This document shows, piece by piece, positions 18,887 to 30,102 of a stretch of 64,000 nt of DNA; within the stretch, counting starts at the first letter, position 1; each line of letters begins with the position of its first letter. The notes under the pieces are model-generated. The model was given only the letters and a program-made list of their open reading frames with translations. It was not told the DNA's origin and searched no databases. The position numbers and the translations under genes are program-made. The DNA comes from Candidatus Poribacteria bacterium (GTDB lineage Bacteria > Poribacteria > WGA-4E > WGA-3G), in the NCBI GenBank assembly GCA_963665235.2, contig CAXXLX010000001.1, forward strand, positions 3,936,001 to 4,000,000. The letters run 5' to 3'.

Positions 18887-20428
18887 CTGCCGACGCAGCA
18901 CCCTTCCCGGCAAATGTCCTGTTACATTTCCATCCTCAACTACCGACACACCGTTTACTAACACCCAATCCACACCGATAGGCGGTTGCACCGGATCAAA
19001 CCATGTGGAACGGTCAGCGACAGTGTCCGGGTTGAAAACGACGATATCCGCAGCAAGTCCACGCGCAATTCTGCCCCGGTCCGATAGTCTAAACCGTTCT
19101 GCTGGAAAACCGCTCATCTTATAGATGGCCTCTTTCAACGAAATCAGTTGACGTTCCCGCACGAACTTGCCGAGATATTGCACAAAACACCCGTAGCTCC
19201 GGGGATGTGGATGCGGAATGTTGTAAACGCCATCACTTGCAATCATCATGCGGGGATGGTTCGCAGTGCGGTTCAAAATACGTTCGTTCTCTTCGGGGGG
19301 TGTGCCCCACGGCATCACAAACGTCTCAATCGCGGCTTCTTCACAAATGAGATCAAAGGCGAATTCTTCATGAGATTTCCCTTCACTTTGTGCTGCTTCA
19401 GCGAGCGTCATCCCGATAAATCTGCCGGAGCGGTTGTAACCCACAATCTGATTACCCTCACTTAATTTTCCTTGCAGGTGTGCAAGCGATTTTTCACGGA
19501 CATCCGGATTTTCTAAGTTTTCTAACATGTCATCGGGTGCGCCGGTCTGAAATTCCATCGGAAGCATCATCGCAAGGTGCGTCATACCTGCTGGATAAAG
19601 GTAGGATTCAAACGTCAGGTCTATCTGTTCTCTCTCCACGCGTTCAAGCAGGTCTAATGCTTCATCGTCAACGCGTTCATGTGAAATATGCACCGGAATT
19701 TCGGCACGTTGGGCAATTTCAATTGTCTCCTCCCACGCCCGCTTTCTACCGATGAGCTGGTAGCGAACATGTGCTGCGTAGATGGCATCGTAAGCCGCCG
19801 CAATTTTTGAAAGAGCGACCAACTCGCGCAAATTGGCATTGGCTGAGGGTTGATAGTCAAGCCCTAAGCATAAACAGCACGCGCCTGCTTCCAACCATTC
19901 GCGTGTCGTGCGTTCCATCGCTCTCAGTTCATCGTTAGTGGCGGGACGTGCAGCCCATCCCATCGCCCCGAGGCGGACAGCGCAATGTGGCACTTGCGGA
20001 TAGAGATTGGCAGGAATTTGCCCATGAAAAATATCGAGATATGCGTCCGGTGTTTCCCAATTCAGTGAGAGTTCGGCATCGCCATAAGCAAATTGTGTGT
20101 AGTGCCACAACTCCCGCGCCAATTTTGGGGATAACGGTGCCCAGCCAAATCCATCAGGCGCAGCGAGATGTGTTGTTACCCCTTGGCTAACAGCCGCAAA
20201 TTGGTCTCTACCGCCGAGCAGGGCAATTTCGGAATGGACGTGAACGTCAATGAAGCCGGGGCAAACGATTTTGTCTTTTGCAGAAATCCGATGCGGTGTT
20301 TCCGCCTTTGCAAGGTCACCGATAGCGGTGATGCTATCGTCCTGAATGCCGATATCCGCTACGAACGGTTCTCGTTTCCCGGTACCATCAATGACGTTTC
20401 CGCCGGCAATAATAACATCAAATATCAC
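18881..20428 (-). CDS. N-acyl-D-amino-acid deacylase family amidohydrolase
   Basis: Motifs PGFIDVHVH, HISH, SDG...PHPRSYG and DRGRIARGLAADIVVF. Confidence 0.9.
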   Translation of the reverse strand: MIFDVIIAGGNVIDGTGKREPFVADIGIQDDSITAIGDLAKAETPHRISAKDKIVCPGFIDVHVHSEIALLGGRDQFAAVSQGVTTHLAAPDGFGWAPLSPKLARELWHYTQFAYGDAELSLNWETPDAYLDIFHGQIPANLYPQVPHCAVRLGAMGWAARPATNDELRAMERTTREWLEAGACCLCLGLDYQPSANANLRELVALSKIAAAYDAIYAAHVRYQLIGRKRAWEETIEIAQRAEIPVHISHERVDDEALDLLERVEREQIDLTFESYLYPAGMTHLAMMLPMEFQTGAPDDMLENLENPDVREKSLAHLQGKLSEGNQIVGYNRSGRFIGMTLAEAAQSEGKSHEEFAFDLICEEAAIETFVMPWGTPPEENERILNRTANHPRMMIASDGVYNIPHPHPRSYGCFVQYLGKFVRERQLISLKEAIYKMSGFPAERFRLSDRGRIARGLAADIVVFNPDTVADRSTWFDPVQPPIGVDWVLVNGVSVVEDGNVTGHLPGRVLRRQS

Positions 20429-20468
20429 AAATTTCTCCTTTGATTTTCCACCTGCTGATAGTCGTTTG

Positions 20469-20861
20469 TTACAAAACCCATGATTCTATGGTGTCAGCAA
20501 TTGCTTCGATATCGCTCATGGAGCCATCGGCAATCTTAAAACCGAGTTCAATGATTGAATCGTCAATGTCAAGCCGCAGAGTGCAACCGTTAAATTCTAA
20601 AAACAGGAGCGCACAGTTCATGCCGATACGTTTATTTCCATCCAAAAATATGTGACCAGCAATAATCTGATGGGCATACACAGCAGCTTTTTGGGGCAAA
20701 GTCGGATACAGTTCCCCGTCACCAAATTTTGCACACACAACTTCGACTAAATAGTCCAACTGGTCTTTGTGCAAAAACTGATAATTACCGACATGTTTCT
20801 CGGCAGCCTCCAGAATTTCCGCGATTGTCAAATATCTGATATGTTGCCTAAGGTTGTCCAT
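20469..20861 (-). CDS. Death-on-curing (Doc/Fic) family toxin
   Basis: Fic motif HIFLDGNKRIG and LYPTLPQKAA. Confidence 0.9.
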   Translation of the reverse strand: MDNLRQHIRYLTIAEILEAAEKHVGNYQFLHKDQLDYLVEVVCAKFGDGELYPTLPQKAAVYAHQIIAGHIFLDGNKRIGMNCALLFLEFNGCTLRLDIDDSIIELGFKIADGSMSDIEAIADTIESWVL

Positions 20862-21235
20862 GCGCGCTCGTAGTCTCGCAGCATTTCGTCTAAAGCGGTG
20901 CTGCTGTTTATCCCGATGTTGCTAGCGGTTTGCATGTCTGCTTTCGCTTTGTCTATCTTTCCAAGGCGTAACCAAGCCTTGCTGCGACAGTAATAAGCAT
21001 CAGCATAATCGGGTTTGATTTCTATCGCCGCGGTATAGTCCGCAACGGCTTTGTCAAGTTCGCCATTTTTAGCGTAAGCACGCCCGCGCTGATAGGATGC
21101 CTCGGCAAACTCCGGATTCAGTTCTATCGCCCTGGTGTAGTCTTTAATAGCAAGTTCAACCTCGCCTTTTTCGCTAGACGCTACACCGCACGTGTAATAT
21201 TTATTGGCAAGTTCTTGATTTCGTTTTTGCATCAT
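20828..21235 (-). CDS. Three-TPR protein with C-terminal putative Doc-antitoxin helix
   Basis: Three TPR motifs followed by STALDEMLRDYERAWTTLG. Overlaps the doc start. Confidence 0.75.
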   Translation of the reverse strand: MMQKRNQELANKYYTCGVASSEKGEVELAIKDYTRAIELNPEFAEASYQRGRAYAKNGELDKAVADYTAAIEIKPDYADAYYCRSKAWLRLGKIDKAKADMQTASNIGINSSTALDEMLRDYERAWTTLGNISDI

Positions 21236-21729
21236 TTATTCTCTGCTTCACCTGCGTCTTGCAGGGCATTGTTGATGACCGATTCGCTCAGGTGCATTCC
21301 GTTTTTCTTCAACTGAATTAGAAGTGGCTTGATGACATCAATCAAACCTTCTTGCTTTGCCTCAAGCAGGATGCCTACTGTGCCTTTAACCGTTAATCCG
21401 ATTTCCTCTGCTCGCCGCCTTCCCCTCTTTTCATCAAGAAGAATAAGGCTGGCCTCATGTTCAACTGCAAGAGCCAGAGCTTCTGCTTCTCCAGGATCGA
21501 CACCTCGATAATCTGTAGCACCTTGCGGATTCGTCAGATCGACAACTTTAATCCACGGGGCACTGTTGAGGGCTTCCCGACGGACTCTCGGATCCTTTTT
21601 GAGAAACTCTTTTTCAACTTCTCTTGGAATCCACACCTCTGTATAAAGATCACGCAACAGAGAAAGAAGGTTGAGCATGAAGAGTCCAACAAGCGGACTG
21701 TTATTGCTAATAACTATCTGTATTGGCAT
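21232..21729 (-). CDS. DUF3368 PIN-like domain protein (copy A)
   Basis: Motifs VISNNSPL, VWIPREVEKE, DPGEAEALALA, LLDEKRGRR and GTVGILLEAK. Confidence 0.88.
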   Translation of the reverse strand: MPIQIVISNNSPLVGLFMLNLLSLLRDLYTEVWIPREVEKEFLKKDPRVRREALNSAPWIKVVDLTNPQGATDYRGVDPGEAEALALAVEHEASLILLDEKRGRRRAEEIGLTVKGTVGILLEAKQEGLIDVIKPLLIQLKKNGMHLSESVINNALQDAGEAENK

Positions 21730-21731
21730 TC

Positions 21732-23192
21732 TTAAAATCCGCTATTGATAAGCTCCTCCTCATCAACATAAAAAGGAGAGAGCCCATAATCTGCCATCAG
21801 GTACCAGAATTCTTCGCGCGAGACACCTGCAAGCTTCGAGGCAAGCCCGCTGCTGAGTTCACCGCTCCCGTAATACTTCATGCCCAACGCAATCCGCGCG
21901 TCCTGCTCCATCTCAAACGGTCCTGTTAGCGGTGTTAGCAGTGCCACAATTTCTTTCGGTAACTGAACCTTCATTTTCTGTTCAAAAGCAGTAATGCTCT
22001 GATGTGTGTCCTGAAACGCTGCGGCGACATCTACGTCTTGTAGGAGTGCGGCTGTCAGGTCGGTCTCCGCTTCTTCCCAACCTTTGGCAAGCAACCACGC
22101 CTCACCGCGTCTGTAATAGAATTCGGGAAGCTTCGGTCTGCGCGTTAAAGCCTCAGTATAATCCGCAATTGCGCTATCTAACTCGGCGTTGTCACGATGG
22201 GCGTTGCCACGATGTGTGTATGCCGCCACAAGTTCCGGATTGAGTTGTATCGCTTCATCGTAATCCGCAATTGCCTTGTCCAATTCGTTTTTGGCATAGT
22301 AAGCCTGACCCCGATTGAGGTATGCTTCGGCTAACGCCGGGTTGCAAGCGATGGCTTTGTTGTGTTCTTCAATTGCCTTGTCTACCTCACCCTGTTCGTT
22401 GTAGATGAGACCGCGGCAGGTATAGGGCTCAGCAAATTCCGGGTTGACTTCTATTGCTTTGTTGTAATCCGCAATAGCTGTGTCTATCTCGCCTTTATCA
22501 CGATAAGCTTGACCGCGCGCTGTCCAAGCCTCCGCAAATTCTGCATCCAGTGCTATCGCAGCGTTATAGTTCTCAATAGCAAGGTCTATATCCCCTTTGC
22601 AATGGTAAGTAAAACCGCGCTGGGTGTATGCAGCAGCAGCCGTATCGGGTTCGAGACGTATCGCGGTGCTGAAGTCCTGGATGGCCTTCTCAAAAGCAAA
22701 GAGGTTCCGGTAAGCCACGCCACGTGCCAAATAGGCAAAAGAATCGTCAGGTGTGAAGCTTAGGACTTTGCTAAGGTCACGAACGACGAGGAAAAACTTG
22801 CCCTCTGCATAGTAAGCCGAACTACGCCCCTTATAGGCAAGGACAATAGGCTCAAAATTCAGCTCTATGGCTTTGCTGAAGTCTTCAATAGCTTGATTGT
22901 GCTCACCTTTTTTGTAGTAAGCAGTGGCACGATTGTAATACGCCTCGGCAAAATGCGGCTCCAGTTTTATCGCCTTGCTGAAGGCTGCGATTGCGCGTGT
23001 GTGCTCACCCTTTTTACTGTAAGCGATGCCTTGGGTGTTATGTCGTGTTGCAGCGTCTTCTCTTTTTCTGTCGACACAATCGCTGTTGTAATAGGTATCC
23101 ATAGCACCTTGGATCCGTTCCTGTATGATTGACGTTCCCCATGTAGAACGCGCTATCACCGTATCTAGAGCACTTTGGAACAGTTCTTGCAT
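21732..23192 (-). CDS. About 10-TPR protein with C-terminal UPF0175 domain (copy A)
   Basis: About 34 aa TPR periodicity. The tail RIALGMKYYGSGELSSGLASKLAGVSREEFWYLMADYGL matches the UPF0175 pattern. Confidence 0.85.
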   Translation of the reverse strand: MQELFQSALDTVIARSTWGTSIIQERIQGAMDTYYNSDCVDRKREDAATRHNTQGIAYSKKGEHTRAIAAFSKAIKLEPHFAEAYYNRATAYYKKGEHNQAIEDFSKAIELNFEPIVLAYKGRSSAYYAEGKFFLVVRDLSKVLSFTPDDSFAYLARGVAYRNLFAFEKAIQDFSTAIRLEPDTAAAAYTQRGFTYHCKGDIDLAIENYNAAIALDAEFAEAWTARGQAYRDKGEIDTAIADYNKAIEVNPEFAEPYTCRGLIYNEQGEVDKAIEEHNKAIACNPALAEAYLNRGQAYYAKNELDKAIADYDEAIQLNPELVAAYTHRGNAHRDNAELDSAIADYTEALTRRPKLPEFYYRRGEAWLLAKGWEEAETDLTAALLQDVDVAAAFQDTHQSITAFEQKMKVQLPKEIVALLTPLTGPFEMEQDARIALGMKYYGSGELSSGLASKLAGVSREEFWYLMADYGLSPFYVDEEELINSGF

Positions 23193-23312
23193 AACTTTTC
23201 TCCTTTACAAGATAGGTTTTTCTTGAGGATAATTATAACGGACAATACCCCCCGATTTCAACGGAATGTAGGAGCTGACCGCCCTACTTAAAAAAGCGAA
23301 CACTGTCTGTTT

Positions 23313-23425
23313 TCATGTCCCTATTTCAGCACCTTGTTCTATCAATTCGCTCGGATGAATGGATAGATACGCTCTCACTTCCAGATTCATCCGCTCGATT
23401 TCGGCAAGAAACCTCCTGCCGATTT
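23313..23425 (-). pseudogene. 3' remnant of a small protein gene
   Basis: Reads ...RRFLAEIERMNLEVRAYLSIHPSELIEQGAEIGT-stop with no clear start of its own. Lies at the junction of the tandem duplication. Confidence 0.4.
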
Positions 23426-23428
23426 CCC

Positions 23429-23926
23429 TCAGATATTCTCTGCCTCACCTGCGTCTCGCAAGGCGTTATTGATGAGCGATTCGCTTAGGTGTATTCCGTT
23501 TTTCTGCAACTGAATTAGAAGTGGCTTGATGACATCAATCAAGCCTTCTTGCTTTGCCTCAAGCAGAATGCCAACTATCCCCTTAACCGTTAATCTGCTT
23601 TCCTCTGCTCGCCGCCTTCCCCTCTTTTCATCAAGAAGAATAAGGCTGGCCTCATGTTCAACTGCAAGAGCCAGAGCTTCTGCTTCTCCAGGATCGACAC
23701 CTTGATAATTTGCGGCACTTTGCGGATCTGTCAGATCGACAACTTTAATCCACGGGGCACTGTTGAGGGCTTCCCGACGGACTCTCGGATTCTTTTTGAG
23801 AAACTCTTTTTCAACTTCTCTTGGAATCCACACCTCTATATAAAGATCACGCAACAGAGAAAGAAGGTTGAGCCCAAAGAGGCCAACAAGCGGACTGTTA
23901 TTGCTGATAACTATCTGTACTGCCAT
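23429..23926 (-). CDS. DUF3368 PIN-like domain protein (copy B)
   Basis: Near-identical paralog of 21232-21729. Confidence 0.88.
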   Translation of the reverse strand: MAVQIVISNNSPLVGLFGLNLLSLLRDLYIEVWIPREVEKEFLKKNPRVRREALNSAPWIKVVDLTDPQSAANYQGVDPGEAEALALAVEHEASLILLDEKRGRRRAEESRLTVKGIVGILLEAKQEGLIDVIKPLLIQLQKNGIHLSESLINNALRDAGEAENI

Positions 23927-23928
23927 TC

Positions 23929-25389
23929 TTAATATCCGCTATTGATAAGCTCTTCTTCATCAACGTATAACGGAGAGAGCCCATAATCCGCCATCAGGTA
24001 CCAGAATTCTTCGCGCGAGACACCTGCAAGCTTCGAGGCAAGCCCGCTGCTGAGTTCACCGCTCCCGTAATACTTCATGCCCAACGCAATCCGCGCGTCT
24101 TGGTCAATCTCAAAGGGGCCTGTTAGCGGTGTTAGCAGTGCCACAATCTCTTTCGGTAGCTGAACCCCTATTTTCTGTTCAAAAGCAGTAATGCTCTGAT
24201 GTGTGTTCTGAAACGCTGCGGCGACATCTACGCCTTGTAGGAGTGCGGCTGTCAGGTCGGTCTCCGCTTCTTCCCAACCTTTGGCAAGCAACCACGCCTC
24301 ACCGCGTCTGTAATAGAATTCGGGAAGCTTCGGTCTGCGTGTTAAAGCCTCAGTATAATCCGCAATTGCGTTATCTAACTCAGGTTTGTCGCGATGGGCG
24401 TTGCCCCGATGTGTGTATGCCGCCACAAGTTCCGGATTGAGTTGTATGGCTTCGTCGTAATCCGCAATTGCTTTGTCCAATTCGCTTTTGGCATAGTAAG
24501 CCTGACCCCGATTGAGGTATGCTTCGGCTAACGCCGGGTTGTGAGCGATAGCTTTGTTGTGCTCTTCAATTGCTTTGTCAACCTCACCCTGTTCGTTGTA
24601 GATGAGACCGCGGCAGGTATAGGGCTCAGCAAGTTCTGGGTTGACTTCACTTGCCTTGTTGTAATCCGCAATTGCTGTGTTTATCTCACCTTTATCACGA
24701 TAAGCTTGACCGCGCGCTGTCCAAGCCCCCGCAAACTTCGGCTTCAGTGCTATCGCAGCGTTATAGTCCGCAATAGCAAGGTCTATATCCTCTTTGCAAT
24801 GGTAGGTTATACCGCGCTGGACGTATATATCAGCAACCGCATCGGGTTTGAGACGTATTGCCGCGCTGAAGTCCTGGATGGCTTTCTCAAAAACAAGGAG
24901 GTTACGGTAAGCCACGCCACGGGCCAAATAGGCAAAAGAATCTTCAGGTGTGAGGCTTAGGACTTTGCTAAAGTTATCAACGACGCGGTAAAACTTGTCT
25001 ACTGCATAGTAAGCCAAGCCGCGCCCTCTATAGGCAAGGACAACAGGCTCAAAATTCAGCTCTATGGCTTTGCTGAAGTCTTCAATAGCTTGATTGTGCT
25101 CACCTTTTTTGTAGTAAGCAGTGGCACGATTGTAATACGCCTCGGCAAAATGCGGCTCCAGTTTTACCGCCTTGCTGAAGGCTGCGATTGCATGTGCATG
25201 CTCACCCTTTTTACTGTAAGCGATGCCTTGGGTGTTATGTCGTGTTGCAGCGTCTTCTCTTTTTCCGTCGATACAATCGCTGTTGTAGTAGGTATCCATA
25301 GCCTCTTGGATCCGTTCTTGTATGATTGACGTTCCCCATGTAGAACGCGCTATTACCGTATCCAGAGCACTTTGGAACAGTTCTTGCAT
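23929..25389 (-). CDS. About 10-TPR protein with C-terminal UPF0175 domain (copy B)
   Basis: Same length (486 aa) and colinear with 21732-23192. Confidence 0.85.
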   Translation of the reverse strand: MQELFQSALDTVIARSTWGTSIIQERIQEAMDTYYNSDCIDGKREDAATRHNTQGIAYSKKGEHAHAIAAFSKAVKLEPHFAEAYYNRATAYYKKGEHNQAIEDFSKAIELNFEPVVLAYRGRGLAYYAVDKFYRVVDNFSKVLSLTPEDSFAYLARGVAYRNLLVFEKAIQDFSAAIRLKPDAVADIYVQRGITYHCKEDIDLAIADYNAAIALKPKFAGAWTARGQAYRDKGEINTAIADYNKASEVNPELAEPYTCRGLIYNEQGEVDKAIEEHNKAIAHNPALAEAYLNRGQAYYAKSELDKAIADYDEAIQLNPELVAAYTHRGNAHRDKPELDNAIADYTEALTRRPKLPEFYYRRGEAWLLAKGWEEAETDLTAALLQGVDVAAAFQNTHQSITAFEQKIGVQLPKEIVALLTPLTGPFEIDQDARIALGMKYYGSGELSSGLASKLAGVSREEFWYLMADYGLSPLYVDEEELINSGY

Positions 25390-25478
25390 AACTACTTTTC
25401 TCCTTTACAAGATGGGTTTTTCTTAAGGATAATGATAACGTACAATACCCCCCGATTTCAACAGAATGTAGGAGCGAT

Positions 25479-26765
25479 AGGTGTGTGAAGTTTTTGTACA
25501 AAACCGGTGTAAATGTTACACTTTTGACACAAAGTGTAACATTCAGGTCTCGGTGCTGCATTGGCACAAACCCACGCCACGTCTATGTTTGTAAGCGGTT
25601 TGCACCTGCCTTGGACGATTTCGAAAAAAGTGAAATGTCACACTTTCGCTATCGGAGGATAAGCAGGTGAGTTGCAAAACGCACCGCTTTCCTCCGAAAA
25701 ATGGTTCGGTTTTCTGTTATGTTAGTTGCTAACATGTTTGCATTTTTCTTCACAAAAAATATTGTGTTGTTTTGGGTGAAGTATTACCCCTCTTAAGAAA
25801 CGCACCCGTTTTTTCTCTAGCTTCTATAAATATATCGTCCCGATGGGACTAAGAAGGGTGGTAGAAACCGCTGCTTTCCTCCGAAAAAAGTTTTGGTTTT
25901 CTGTTATGTTAGTTGCGAACTGTTTGATTTTTCTTCATAAAAAATATTATTGGCTCATTGGCAATTGGTGAAGGTTTACTAAAGTTTGGACAATTTTATG
26001 AGTTTGCATTGATTTCCGTGTCGTCTGAATGCACGTCGCATTTGGGCGAGTACGCCGCAAATCGCGGATTACACGGAGAACACGGAGAACGCGGAAAGGA
26101 GGTGCGTAACACTCCAAGTTTTGGGATTATAGGTTAGGGTATTGTGTATTCTATAAACATTCCGCCCCTCTGGGGCTAGGTTGTGGAGGCGTTGCGTATT
26201 CTATAAATATACCGCCCCTACGGGGCTGCGTTTTCACAGGAGAAGCGGGGAACCGTTTGCCCGAATACTGGGACTAAGAATCGGGGCGGAAACGACTTTC
26301 TATAAATATATCGTCCCTACAGGACTAATACCAAATTAACAGGATTCATATTGTTTTTCCATTTTGCAAATCCACTAAATTCGCGATAGTTTCCAAAAAT
26401 GATAATATAGAATTCCTTATTGTCAAAAATAGGCAAAAATGATAATATAGTCCTGAAGATTATTTTTTTAAATTCGGTATAAGCGGGCAGAAACGGCTGC
26501 TTCTATAAATATATCGTCCCTACGGGACTAAGAATCGGGGCGGAAATGGTTTTCTATAAATATATCGTCCCTACGGGACTAAGAGGCGGGCAGAAACCCA
26601 GATGCCTATAAACATATCGTCCCTAAGAAGCCGACTTATCGCCCAGTATTCGGGCAACCAGCCCGCTCCTCATACTAGGGGAAAACTTTTCAAACTCACG
26701 TTATACGACACGACGGGCGATGAATCGCCCTACTACGAACGGGGGTCCAAAAACTTTACACACCC
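25479..26765. mobile_element. Non-coding composite repeat element bounded by inverted repeats, carrying about 7 REP-like palindromes
   Basis: Left end AGGTGTGTGAAGTTTTTG, right end CAAAAACTTTACACACCC. Internal units of the form TTCTATAAATATATCGTCCCTACGGGACTA and related GCCCC...GGGGC variants. Confidence 0.55.
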
Positions 26766-26943
26766 AGGTGTGAGCCCCCATTCAGGTGTGAACCCCCATT
26801 AATTTCAGCATCACATACCGCTCCGCTGGAGCATAATCCGCGAAATCCGTGTAATCCGCGTCAATCCGCGATTCAGACAATTTGTCACGTTGCTTAAAAT
26901 TAATGATACCACATCCCTCACCCAGATGTCAACCAAAAATTTC

Positions 26944-27888
26944 CTATTTCCCCTTCAAACTTTTCGCCTTCCGCAGCCGTGCCTCCACAAGATTAACAAC
27001 CGCTTCATACACCGCATCCCGTTCGCCTTGTGTGAGACCGAGAGCATCAAAGATAATCGCGTCAAGTGCGCGGCGGTCAGGTTGATTAATCTCATCAAAG
27101 ATTGACAAAACGGGTCGCTGTTTCATTGAGGCAAAGGCGCGTTGCAAACTCTCACCGCTTTGAGCATGAATCCAATCTGGGGAGATGAAATCAAAACTCA
27201 AAATGTCAGGGCCATAAGTTGTTAGCAACCCGTCTCCCAAATTGACTCTACCGTATATTTCAGAAACAAACACCGCTAAAGTAGAATTGGCAACTGCGTT
27301 TGCAGATTGAAGTGTCTCCCGATTATGAAGCGTTGCAGTGAACACAACATCACCAGCTAATAAAGAAGATATTTCGTTAATCGGAGTCCAATTTCTCTTA
27401 TCACGGAATCTCAAAATAAACCAATCAAAAGGTGGTTGTTCACCTAAATCCCACCAGCGTGGCCTGCCTCTGCAGCTCGGCCGCTGATGATACCCCTGTT
27501 TCTCACCCCACTCGATATACTCCAACGCAGCAGTTCCCGCCAACGCTGCCTTGTCCGCATGACACATAAACAGCTTGAACTTCAACTGACTCGGGTCTAC
27601 ACGGATACTCTTACACTCACGTGGGCTCTTAATGACAGGTTTCAAATATTCAGCCTCAATGCCCCATTCCTGAATTCGCTCGGTGTCAAGATAGAAGAAC
27701 TTGTTTGCACCCGTTTTGATGCCAAACCGCACCTCCGCAATGTTTCCGAGGCGCACCAGTTTATCTTTCCCCTTCTCTAAGAGCGTCCAATAGATATCCG
27801 GGGCGCGGAGATATTTCCCACCCCACTTGTCCCCAGCATACCTGTTTTCACGCGTGCCTGCTTGTGCCAGCTCGGTATTTGAAAACAT
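26944..27888 (-). pseudogene. Isolated C-terminal (specificity) part of a Type IIG/Eco57I-like restriction-modification enzyme
   Basis: KWGGKYLRAPDIY...LGNIAEVRFGIKTGANKFFY...YLKPVIKSPRE...RRALDAIIFDALGLT. No NPPY or SAM-binding motif and no clear RBS. Confidence 0.65.
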
Positions 27889-29475: not shown

Positions 29476-30063
29476 TTATTCCTCTAGCAGTTTTTGAAGG
29501 ACAAGGGCAGTTTTATTCTCTGAATCAATTTCAAGTGCCTTGTCAAGTGCTTGCGATGCATTTCCGTTTTCGCCGAGGTAGTAGTAGCATGCTGCTGTGA
29601 GTGTATGAAGTTCGGCATTAGAGTCGTAATCGTGTCGAAAGAGGTATTGCGTATCCGCTTGCAGTGCGTTATCAATTGCGCGGATAGCCGACCTAAAATC
29701 GGAGGCATCTTTGTAACGTAAGTAGAGCACATTCGCGAGCCCGACCCATGCATCAGCATTAGAATCGTCAAGCCGAACGGCGTTTTGAAACGCCTCCTGT
29801 GCAAGCGGGAGGGTTAAGGAGAGGCTCAGATGGCTCCAGCCGACCCCGTTGTGTGCATCCGCAAATCCCGTATCGGTGTTGAGGGCACGTTCAAAATTGA
29901 GCAGTGCTTGTGTGTAGTCGCCTGAATTGTAGGCACGCCACCCCGCTTCTGTGTGCATGAGTGCAGTTGCCCTATCCGTTTCTGAACGGTCGGAACAACC
30001 GCTCAGCGTCAAAAGCGTGAAGCCGAATATAAACAGGGCCGGTATTATGAAAACAGTCCGCAT
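29476..30063 (-). CDS. TPR-repeat lipoprotein
   Basis: Lipobox LSGC and TPR motifs. ATG at 30063 follows GGAGG. Confidence 0.8.
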   Translation of the reverse strand: MRTVFIIPALFIFGFTLLTLSGCSDRSETDRATALMHTEAGWRAYNSGDYTQALLNFERALNTDTGFADAHNGVGWSHLSLSLTLPLAQEAFQNAVRLDDSNADAWVGLANVLYLRYKDASDFRSAIRAIDNALQADTQYLFRHDYDSNAELHTLTAACYYYLGENGNASQALDKALEIDSENKTALVLQKLLEE

Positions 30064-30102
30064 CTTGCCTCCTTCTAATACCATTTCTAATTAAAAACGT
30101 CT

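Follow-up and report, generated by a model that had tools for sequence, protein, structure and literature searches.

Tetratricopeptide repeat solenoids carrying candidate antitoxin modules: two kinds of toxin-antitoxin-like operon in a Candidatus Poribacteria genome

In a 64,000-nt stretch of a Candidatus Poribacteria genome (contig CAXXLX010000001.1, positions 3,936,001-4,000,000, assembly GCA_963665235.2; hereafter the window, in which all positions are counted), the segment 20469-25389 is filled by six minus-strand open reading frames (ORFs) in the order A1>T1>A2>T2>A3>T3 (Table 1). A1 and A2 are tetratricopeptide repeat (TPR) proteins ending in a UPF0175 antitoxin domain and each precedes a DUF3368 PIN-like gene; A3 is a small TPR protein followed by a Doc gene. 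Our reading, to which we give a probability of about 0.6, is that these genes constitute two kinds of type II toxin-antitoxin (TA)-like operon, where the C-terminal neutraliser is carried by a cytoplasmic TPR solenoid and the TPR part is an accessory domain. Both architectures recur in many other genomes, which argues that the six-gene arrangement is not a chance juxtaposition.

A first-pass annotation of this DNA had proposed here a cluster of TPR-antitoxin and toxin genes, and both the ORFs and their Pfam and NCBIfam domains agree with it. It had counted five genes in tightly coupled runs; tight same-strand runs do exist, but they include all six genes, in two runs. The A1>T1 and A2>T2 gaps are of 2 nt each and T1 is separated from A2 by 236 nt, while the T2 stop and the A3 start overlap by 4 nt and A3 and T3 by 34 nt. 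The three TA-like pairs are present but, since the two large pairs are one tandem duplication (see below), the locus has two independent designs and not three. That two unrelated toxin classes share one layout, a TPR array plus a candidate C-terminal toxin-docking piece, was borne out.

Both A1 and A2 match many TPR families and, at residues 424-481, UPF0175 (Pfam; 48.1 and 50.2 bits, for a cut-off of 27.9), so that the assignment of their tail to this antitoxin family stands. The AlphaFold2 model of A2 (mean pLDDT 81.9) has 10 helix pairs across residues 47-384 and, next to them, three short cap helices; a linker modelled with low confidence (423-428) then leads to a domain of three helices (430-468), and the acidic end of the chain is disordered. 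No NTPase family figures in the listed Pfam results of A1 or A2, and Pfam gave no match to Panacea (DUF4065) in A1, A2 or A3, the accessory part of which is made of TPRs.

The copies are 89% (A1/A2) and 90% (T1/T2) identical, and both large pairs are one recent tandem duplication, the unit of which begins ~85 nt upstream of each start codon and takes in a promoter-like site. With dS at about 0.15 and an overall dN/dS of 0.36 for the A pair and the T pair alike, both copies are maintained. Along A1/A2 the nonsynonymous changes are unevenly spread (Fisher p 0.005, on small numbers): residues 113-219, i.e. TPRs 3-5, hold 33.5 of the 59.5 changes, with a dN/dS of 0.78 (again on small numbers), and the corresponding values are 0.13 for UPF0175 and 0.17 for residues 220-372.

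A pattern scan of reference genomes, based on an alignment of the tail, gave 34 related loci, the patterns favouring close relatives; 33 of them are titled Candidatus Poribacteria metagenome-assembled genomes and one 'uncultured bacterium'. In all 34, a TPR frame of 172-1346 aa ends in the UPF0175 tail, and the fused frame is uninterrupted in 31 (it is broken or cut in L026, L030 and L050). A full-length PIN gene (at least 161 aa), the product of which is 66-79% identical to T2, lies directly downstream in 22 loci; in most of these it starts 2-4 nt past the fusion stop, and it overlaps the end of the fusion in L024 and L033 (second pair). In a whole-genome search, the tail was found in 28 of the 36 other genomes searched in this family, and every match of theirs at E<=1e-10 is in an open frame of 214-1087 aa. 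The frames of 8 of the 10 tail matches in two sister families have 91-162 aa, and none of the seven genomes of a fourth family gave a match. The fusions anticipated in related genomes are thus present. The premise that UPF0175 genes are normally small holds as well: the stand-alone ones of the sister families are of 88-128 aa, PIN genes coming after several of them, and the 129 proteins matching the tail in a representative library of 1.8 billion proteins are mostly of 66-150 aa, with nine of at least 200 aa, eight of which are within the best 25 matches.

In a tree of the UPF0175 domain (80 columns, many forks unresolved), the main fused set is one branch (support 92/98), and the three short rows inside it come from broken fusions. 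Other fused forms could not be placed, and some rows, which are mis-cut internal cap-like segments, form a separate long branch. As far as searched, the fused lineage is restricted to Poribacteria. Near-identical tails are carried by arrays of very different length. The window's genome possesses a further pair of canonical type, made of a 109-aa UPF0175 protein and a 125-aa PIN-like protein.

For the putative toxins of these pairs, the family assignment is firm: T1 and T2 match DUF3368 (Pfam; 53.1 and 57.7 bits, cut-off 27.3), and the PIN protein matches the models of the PADLOC defence candidate PDC-S70 over its full length (E 1.3e-44). With T2 as query, 422 database clusters came up at E<=1e-5; identity to T2 is 71-100% for the 120 listed, and the five of these with a source name are DUF3368 domain-containing proteins of Candidatus Poribacteria. 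In two surveys, UPF0175/COG2886 is described as a predicted helix-turn-helix (HTH) antitoxin found exclusively beside COG2405/DUF3368 PIN genes (PMC5499597, PMC2701414), and an archaeal origin has been proposed for the PIN family (PMC12988326). A preprint (10.1101/2024.09.26.614923) reports protection of E. coli from T4, T5 and T7 by one PDC-S70 member. The PIN fold was not confirmed structurally, since the AlphaFold2 model of T2, made from a 17-row alignment, had a pLDDT of only 57 and Foldseek gave no match to it at E<=0.001, with Nob1 and VapC entries at E>1 only. A PDB sequence search with T2 found nothing at E<=1, and one with the UPF0175 tail profile only a chance-level match (5mec, E 0.89).

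T3 is a Doc-type protein by several measures. It matches Fic in Pfam (35.9 bits; cut-off 24) and DOC_P1 in NCBIfam (55.4 bits; cut-off 38.65), its HIFLDGNKR motif (residues 70-78) is intact, and it matches the PDB Doc chains 9vzc, 3k33, 3dd7 and 3kh2, P1 Doc included, at E values of 2e-7 to 7e-5. A3, compared with Pfam and NCBIfam at E<=0.01, matches TPR families only, with three TPR_2 stretches, and no Phd/YefM family. Of 111 other family genomes, 84 have a Doc homologue (E<=1e-10), most of them a single one. In each of the 29 best-scoring loci, to which the neighbourhood counts apply, an upstream TPR gene overlaps Doc by 4, 25 or 34 nt, and its product bears the near-constant tail ...GINSxTALDExLRNYDRAWKTLGN. 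These Doc-linked genes span 100-488 aa, although with a flank of 1.5 kb the longer ones may be incomplete; in L028 the Doc partner has 641 aa and carries FRG at its N-terminus. Three other genomes (L014/L062, L065 and L018) have the complete A-T-A3-Doc order seen here.

Modelling of the A3-Doc complex gave a score of 0.91 in three runs, the best control being at 0.02. Among solved complexes 58 of 80 came up to that level, as did 2 of 110 mismatched pairs, a calibration that is rough as own alignments were used. The runs share at least 96% of their contacts, with a partner pLDDT of at least 92. On Doc, the modelled interface takes in residues 81-108 and, within the DGNKR loop, 74-75 and 77-78; on A3 it covers residues 82-134. 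The Doc-binding piece of A3 is therefore predicted, on the model, to be the tail together with the last TPR helix, placed on the Doc catalytic loop; the short tail initially put forward does lie on that loop, but the last TPR helix belongs to the interface too. For comparison, the 22-residue kinked C-terminal helix of Phd suffices for neutralisation, as reported in PMC9207808.

Table 1. Genes and other features at the locus (positions in the window)
Feature	Position	Strand	Description	Source
A1	23929-25389	-	486 aa; 10 TPRs + cap motif + C-terminal UPF0175 (HTH-type antitoxin)	Pfam
T1	23429-23926	-	165 aa; DUF3368 (COG2405-type) PIN-like, predicted toxin	Pfam
A2	21732-23192	-	486 aa; TPR(10)-cap-UPF0175, A1 paralogue	Pfam, AlphaFold2
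T2	21232-21729	-	165 aa; DUF3368 PIN-like	Pfam
A3	20828-21235	-	135 aa; 3 TPRs + conserved C-terminal tail (...GINSSTALDEMLRDYERAWTTLGNISDI), predicted Doc antitoxin	Pfam
T3	20469-20861	-	130 aa; Doc (Fic-fold kinase) toxin, motif HIFLDGNKR	NCBIfam DOC_P1
Promoter-like site TTGAAA-18-TATCAT	25432-25461	-	before A1, inside duplicated 85-nt leader; 10/12 consensus match only	
Promoter-like site TTGAAA-18-TATAAT	23232-23261	-	before A2; 11/12 consensus match only	
Small-ORF remnant	23313-23444	-	43 open codons, head without start codon	stop-to-stop frame

The solenoid belongs to a wider family. The segment running from the last TPR to '...LPxxIVxLLT', which forms the cap, is the natural C-terminus of a family of paralogous TPR proteins: it was seen at C-termini in the 10 loci inspected, and in eight of them the protein ends just past the motif without UPF0175. 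Stand-alone UPF0175 proteins start with a similar 'QYPxEILxAL' stretch, so that the two families resemble each other over a short stretch just where they are fused. Additional domains are found at the other end of the proteins. Among eight long fusions scanned, two have an N-terminal TIR domain (L022, L024) and one an FRG domain (L023), and no NTPase family was found among the best 25 of up to 31 families per protein; P0006 is likewise an FRG-TPR-UPF0175 protein. Cap-bearing paralogues of the window's genome carry FRG with a weak SUKH-1 match, or TaqI_C. One such protein, of 718 aa with an FRG domain and a weak SUKH-1 match, lies ~2 kb from the canonical pair mentioned above (G000:C1:2569895-2573774; L003, L099, L103), which is the only stand-alone one of the genome.

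We propose that, in the first kind of module, which is present in two copies, the UPF0175 HTH domain with its conserved acidic end, borne by ten TPRs and the cap, would dock the downstream DUF3368 PIN protein, a putative toxin. In the second kind, which has three TPRs in front of a helical tail, this tail together with the last TPR helix would cover the catalytic loop of Doc and keep the kinase inactive, as the Phd-C helices do. Most likely, the TPR array would bind a protein or peptide ligand or scaffold a larger assembly, and in this way decide if the toxin is retained; a role of the modules in conflict or defence would follow. It is plausible that the TPRs act as a sensor. An accessory or sensor role is supported by the concentration of nonsynonymous changes in residues 113-219 and not in UPF0175, by the near-identical tails on arrays of differing length, by the addition of TIR and FRG domains, and by the PDC-S70 match.

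How far this departs from known systems can be judged from a few comparisons. With the UPF0175-DUF3368 TA systems (COG2886-COG2405, PDC-S70) the large pairs share the same two domains, the antitoxin-first order and the tight coupling. The antitoxin, however, is not a small single-domain protein: it has 486 aa here (172-1346 in relatives) and 10 or more TPRs, some relatives add TIR or FRG, and the PIN protein appears to have Asn where the first catalytic Asp is expected. With Phd-Doc (phage P1, Salmonella), the small pair has in common an intact HxFxDGNKR Doc and an antitoxin gene that comes first and overlaps Doc, and its predicted neutraliser is likewise C-terminal, helical and, in the model, on the catalytic loop (PMC9207808). 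A3 differs in being without a Phd/YefM domain, in its N-terminal TPRs where Phd has a DNA-binding fold, and in the participation of the last TPR helix in the modelled interface.

The closest published design is that of Panacea. In Ernits et al. 2023 (PMC10440598), a Panacea protein with Phd-C neutralises Doc, a SUMO-Phd-C fusion suffices, and a sensory role is hypothesised by the authors. The logic is the same, i.e. a non-neutralising globular accessory domain followed by a linear C-terminal neutraliser, with one accessory serving several toxin classes, but the accessory is here a TPR solenoid of variable length and not Panacea/DUF4065; neither 'TPR' nor 'UPF0175' is present in the text of that paper. 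Since the accessory-plus-linear-neutraliser design is published for Panacea-Phd-C:Doc, we regard the architecture as a new variant and not as one without precedent. The first-pass annotation knew of no described system, which is right in that no paper on a TPR-antitoxin fusion was found among literature listings and passages of the papers cited here (supplements, outside this search, may hold domain-architecture tables with such fusions) but goes too far as to the principle. The domain pairs themselves are known (PMC5499597, PMC2701414), and what is seen here is a real, conserved variant of modular type II TA. The TPR solenoid as accessory, its use with two toxin classes, its family-wide occurrence and the TIR/FRG variants were not found in the literature searched.

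Two other comparisons concern the TPRs. TPR arrays are used as protein- or peptide-binding modules tied to an effector or an HTH domain in the Avs/STAND NTPases, the RRNPP regulators and AimR. TIR-TPR combinations resembling these are seen in relatives of A1/A2, but A1 and A2 have no NTPase match, their HTH is C-terminal and of an antitoxin family, and the effectors are separate TA toxins. FICD/HYPE, an AMPylase, combines TPRs and Fic in one chain, with a helix controlling the active site; here there are two chains, the Fic-fold protein is of the Doc kinase type, and the system is prokaryotic and operon-encoded.

Several observations weigh against TPR-borne neutralisers with an accessory, possibly sensing, solenoid. 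The PIN gene is truncated in 9 of the 34 loci and was not detected in 3; an intact-looking TPR-UPF0175 gene is kept in 9 of these 12, and the fusion protein may thus have a function of its own. The PIN active site is made of an Asp after strand 1, an Asp/Glu at the start of helix 4 and an Asp/Glu after strand 4, and COG2405 is listed with 2-5 active-site residues (PMC5499597). In our alignment E81 (GEAE) and D99/E100 (LLDE) are conserved, but an Asn (N9/N10) follows strand 1 in 15 of 16 aligned PIN proteins, with a D in P0215, the strand being taken from the model of pLDDT 57. The engineered D7N VapC structure 5ed0 is in the Foldseek list of the T2 model, the VapC entries of which scored only E>1; a D7N change inactivates VapC. 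With Asn at the usual first catalytic Asp, the PIN protein may, from its sequence, be a weak or non-canonical nuclease, and the stand-alone pairs of the sister families have Asn at this position as well. TPR arrays are abundant in this genome, which has ~13 further cap-bearing paralogues without UPF0175 (E<1e-11), and the variation in array length may reflect general repeat instability and not sensor diversification. As Doc-Phd complexes are solved, part of the high A3-Doc score may come from likeness to known structures; despite this possible bias, A3 is without a Phd domain, and a word-based search with its tail (residues 90-135) gave three matches, all TPR proteins, and no known Doc antitoxin. 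Finally, the genes flanking the modules are mostly housekeeping ones (NDK, TauE, GNAT, oxidoreductases) among 128 flanking ORFs, where defence-like neighbours are few (AAA_15 5, Eco57I 2, FRG 2). A defence-island context was tried and found weak.

One alternative is an ordinary TA system with a bulky antitoxin, the TPRs of which stabilise it, oligomerise it, localise it or slow its proteolysis without any sensing, the modules being selfish addiction elements. We find this doubtful while granting it some real weight: like mobile addiction cassettes, the modules sit in varied genomic contexts, since the amidohydrolase gene next to Doc in the window adjoins it in none of the 29 other loci; PIN decay in 12 of 34 loci is typical of TA turnover; and a neutral stabilising domain was enough in the SUMO-Phd-C experiment (PMC10440598). 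The upkeep of arrays of up to about 1300 aa, the clustering of nonsynonymous changes in TPRs 3-5 of the paralogues and the TIR/FRG additions at the far end are, however, left unexplained by it. Fusion length points the same way, with a median of 688 aa beside an intact PIN gene (22 loci) versus 384 aa beside a decayed one (12 loci), but the relatives compared are not independent and a coupling of array length to toxin is only hinted at. Another alternative, in line with the fusions retained beside decayed or missing PIN genes, is that the TPR-UPF0175 protein is primarily a ligand-responsive transcription regulator, akin to RRNPP/AimR in reversed domain order, for which PIN would be accessory or decaying and where the small TPR protein would target or regulate Doc, as the FICD TPRs do, and not inhibit it. 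UPF0175 is predicted to be an HTH DNA-binding domain (PMC2701414), the PIN protein appears to lack the first catalytic Asp, and a promoter-like site lies in the conserved 85-nt leader of each copy. We nevertheless hold it to be improbable: 22 of 34 loci have an intact, directly adjacent and well-conserved PIN gene, purifying selection acts on T1/T2 (dN/dS 0.36), the modelled A3 tail sits on catalytic-loop residues, which fits inhibition better than targeting, and no operator was identified, the inverted repeats found being in the small-ORF remnant or in a dispersed repeat.

An artefact of annotation or assembly, by which a TPR gene and a small antitoxin gene would have been joined through a frameshift, or strain variants collapsed into a false duplication, would be a trivial explanation. 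The contigs of 4 public runs are short fragments, none of which spans the whole stretch, and no RNA run was listed among the public runs. In each of two runs of one study, one low-depth contig joins 21237 to 23442/23444 and so leaves out one duplication unit of ~2.2 kb; the sampled population may thus include a single-copy A-T-A3-Doc form beside the duplicated one. An artefact is very hard to reconcile with the uninterrupted fused frames in 31 of 34 reference loci and with the 28 of 36 family genomes, with the tandem pairs that occur in other genomes too (L033, G009), or with the differences between the copies, which affect synonymous and nonsynonymous sites as in diverged paralogues (dS 0.15), and we consider it most improbable.

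The interpretation in terms of TPR-borne neutralisers can be taken further. The Poribacteria TPR-plus-cap solenoid could be a modular NTPase-free immune or symbiosis platform, with a TIR or FRG effector at its N-terminus and interchangeable docks at its C-terminus (UPF0175 for PIN, a Phd-C-like helix for Doc), where a phage or sponge protein bound in the fast-evolving middle repeats would release or activate the effectors, i.e. a sensor-gated multi-effector TA system. This extension is speculative and we think it rather unlikely; if true, it would link the 'eukaryote-like' repeat proteins of sponge symbionts to growth control. More generally, the locus bears on how type II TA modules are triggered and on what the accessory domains of modular antitoxins do, since, in a whole bacterial family and for two unrelated toxins, a TPR protein-binding fold appears to stand where antitoxins otherwise have their small or DNA-binding part. 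Some TPR 'eukaryote-like proteins' of sponge symbionts may accordingly belong to conflict systems and not to host interaction. The contrast between a conserved docking part and variable repeats offers an experimental handle on the TPR ligand and on toxin release.

Upstream of TPR-antitoxin genes of both kinds, other genomes have a conserved small ORF of ~73 aa (MIQNNQELE...EIDRMNLEVREYLSIHPSELIEQ...), which is full-length (73-76 aa) at L048:2897-3118, L033:2640-2864 and L072:802-1020 and matches no Pfam family. The window keeps its C-terminal 43 codons, abutting the T1 stop; the DNA of this remnant is 79-92% identical to 10 other loci, with variation that is codon-wise and largely synonymous. 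The small ORF could be a third component of the modules. A role of the T1-A2 spacer as a regulatory RNA or operator was considered and dropped, the spacer being the remnant of this ORF; an Rfam scan of 20000-27500 gave nothing. In four loci, a TaqI_C protein and/or an ATPase of ~480 aa of AAA_15/SMC_N type, then the ~73-aa ORF, precede the fusion. The ATPase genes (AAA_15/AAA_23/SMC_N type; L033:1179-2615, L045:1241-2668, L031:1724-3160 and L050:1416-2885) are absent from the window, and in L033 and L045 they are preceded by the gene for the TaqI_C-domain protein.

The neighbours of the locus in the window are an amidohydrolase, an oxidoreductase, SAICAR synthetase and an ABC transporter. That the amidohydrolase adjoins Doc in none of the 29 other loci suggests that the modules move between contexts. 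The 314-aa ORF at 26944-27888 (-) matches no more than the C-terminal part of a type II DNA methyltransferase profile (247-538 of 539) and appears truncated; 4 of the 34 related loci have a homologue of this fragment upstream of the fusion gene. At 29476-30084 (-), next to SAICAR synthetase, is another small TPR protein (202 aa), with no relation to the TA modules as far as examined. Between the methyltransferase fragment and A1 extends ~1.5 kb of low-GC sequence without long ORFs, and a tandem-repeat scan of 25300-27000 gave just two trivial arrays. A dispersed repeat of ~120-220 bp lies upstream of A1, at 25480-25700, and includes an inverted repeat of 13 nt without mismatch (25512-25543). 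The window's genome has 105 matches to the dispersed repeat, often arrayed at ~215-250 bp spacing, and in all 4 public runs the contig depth over its bin is ~20-30x that of the neighbouring bins.

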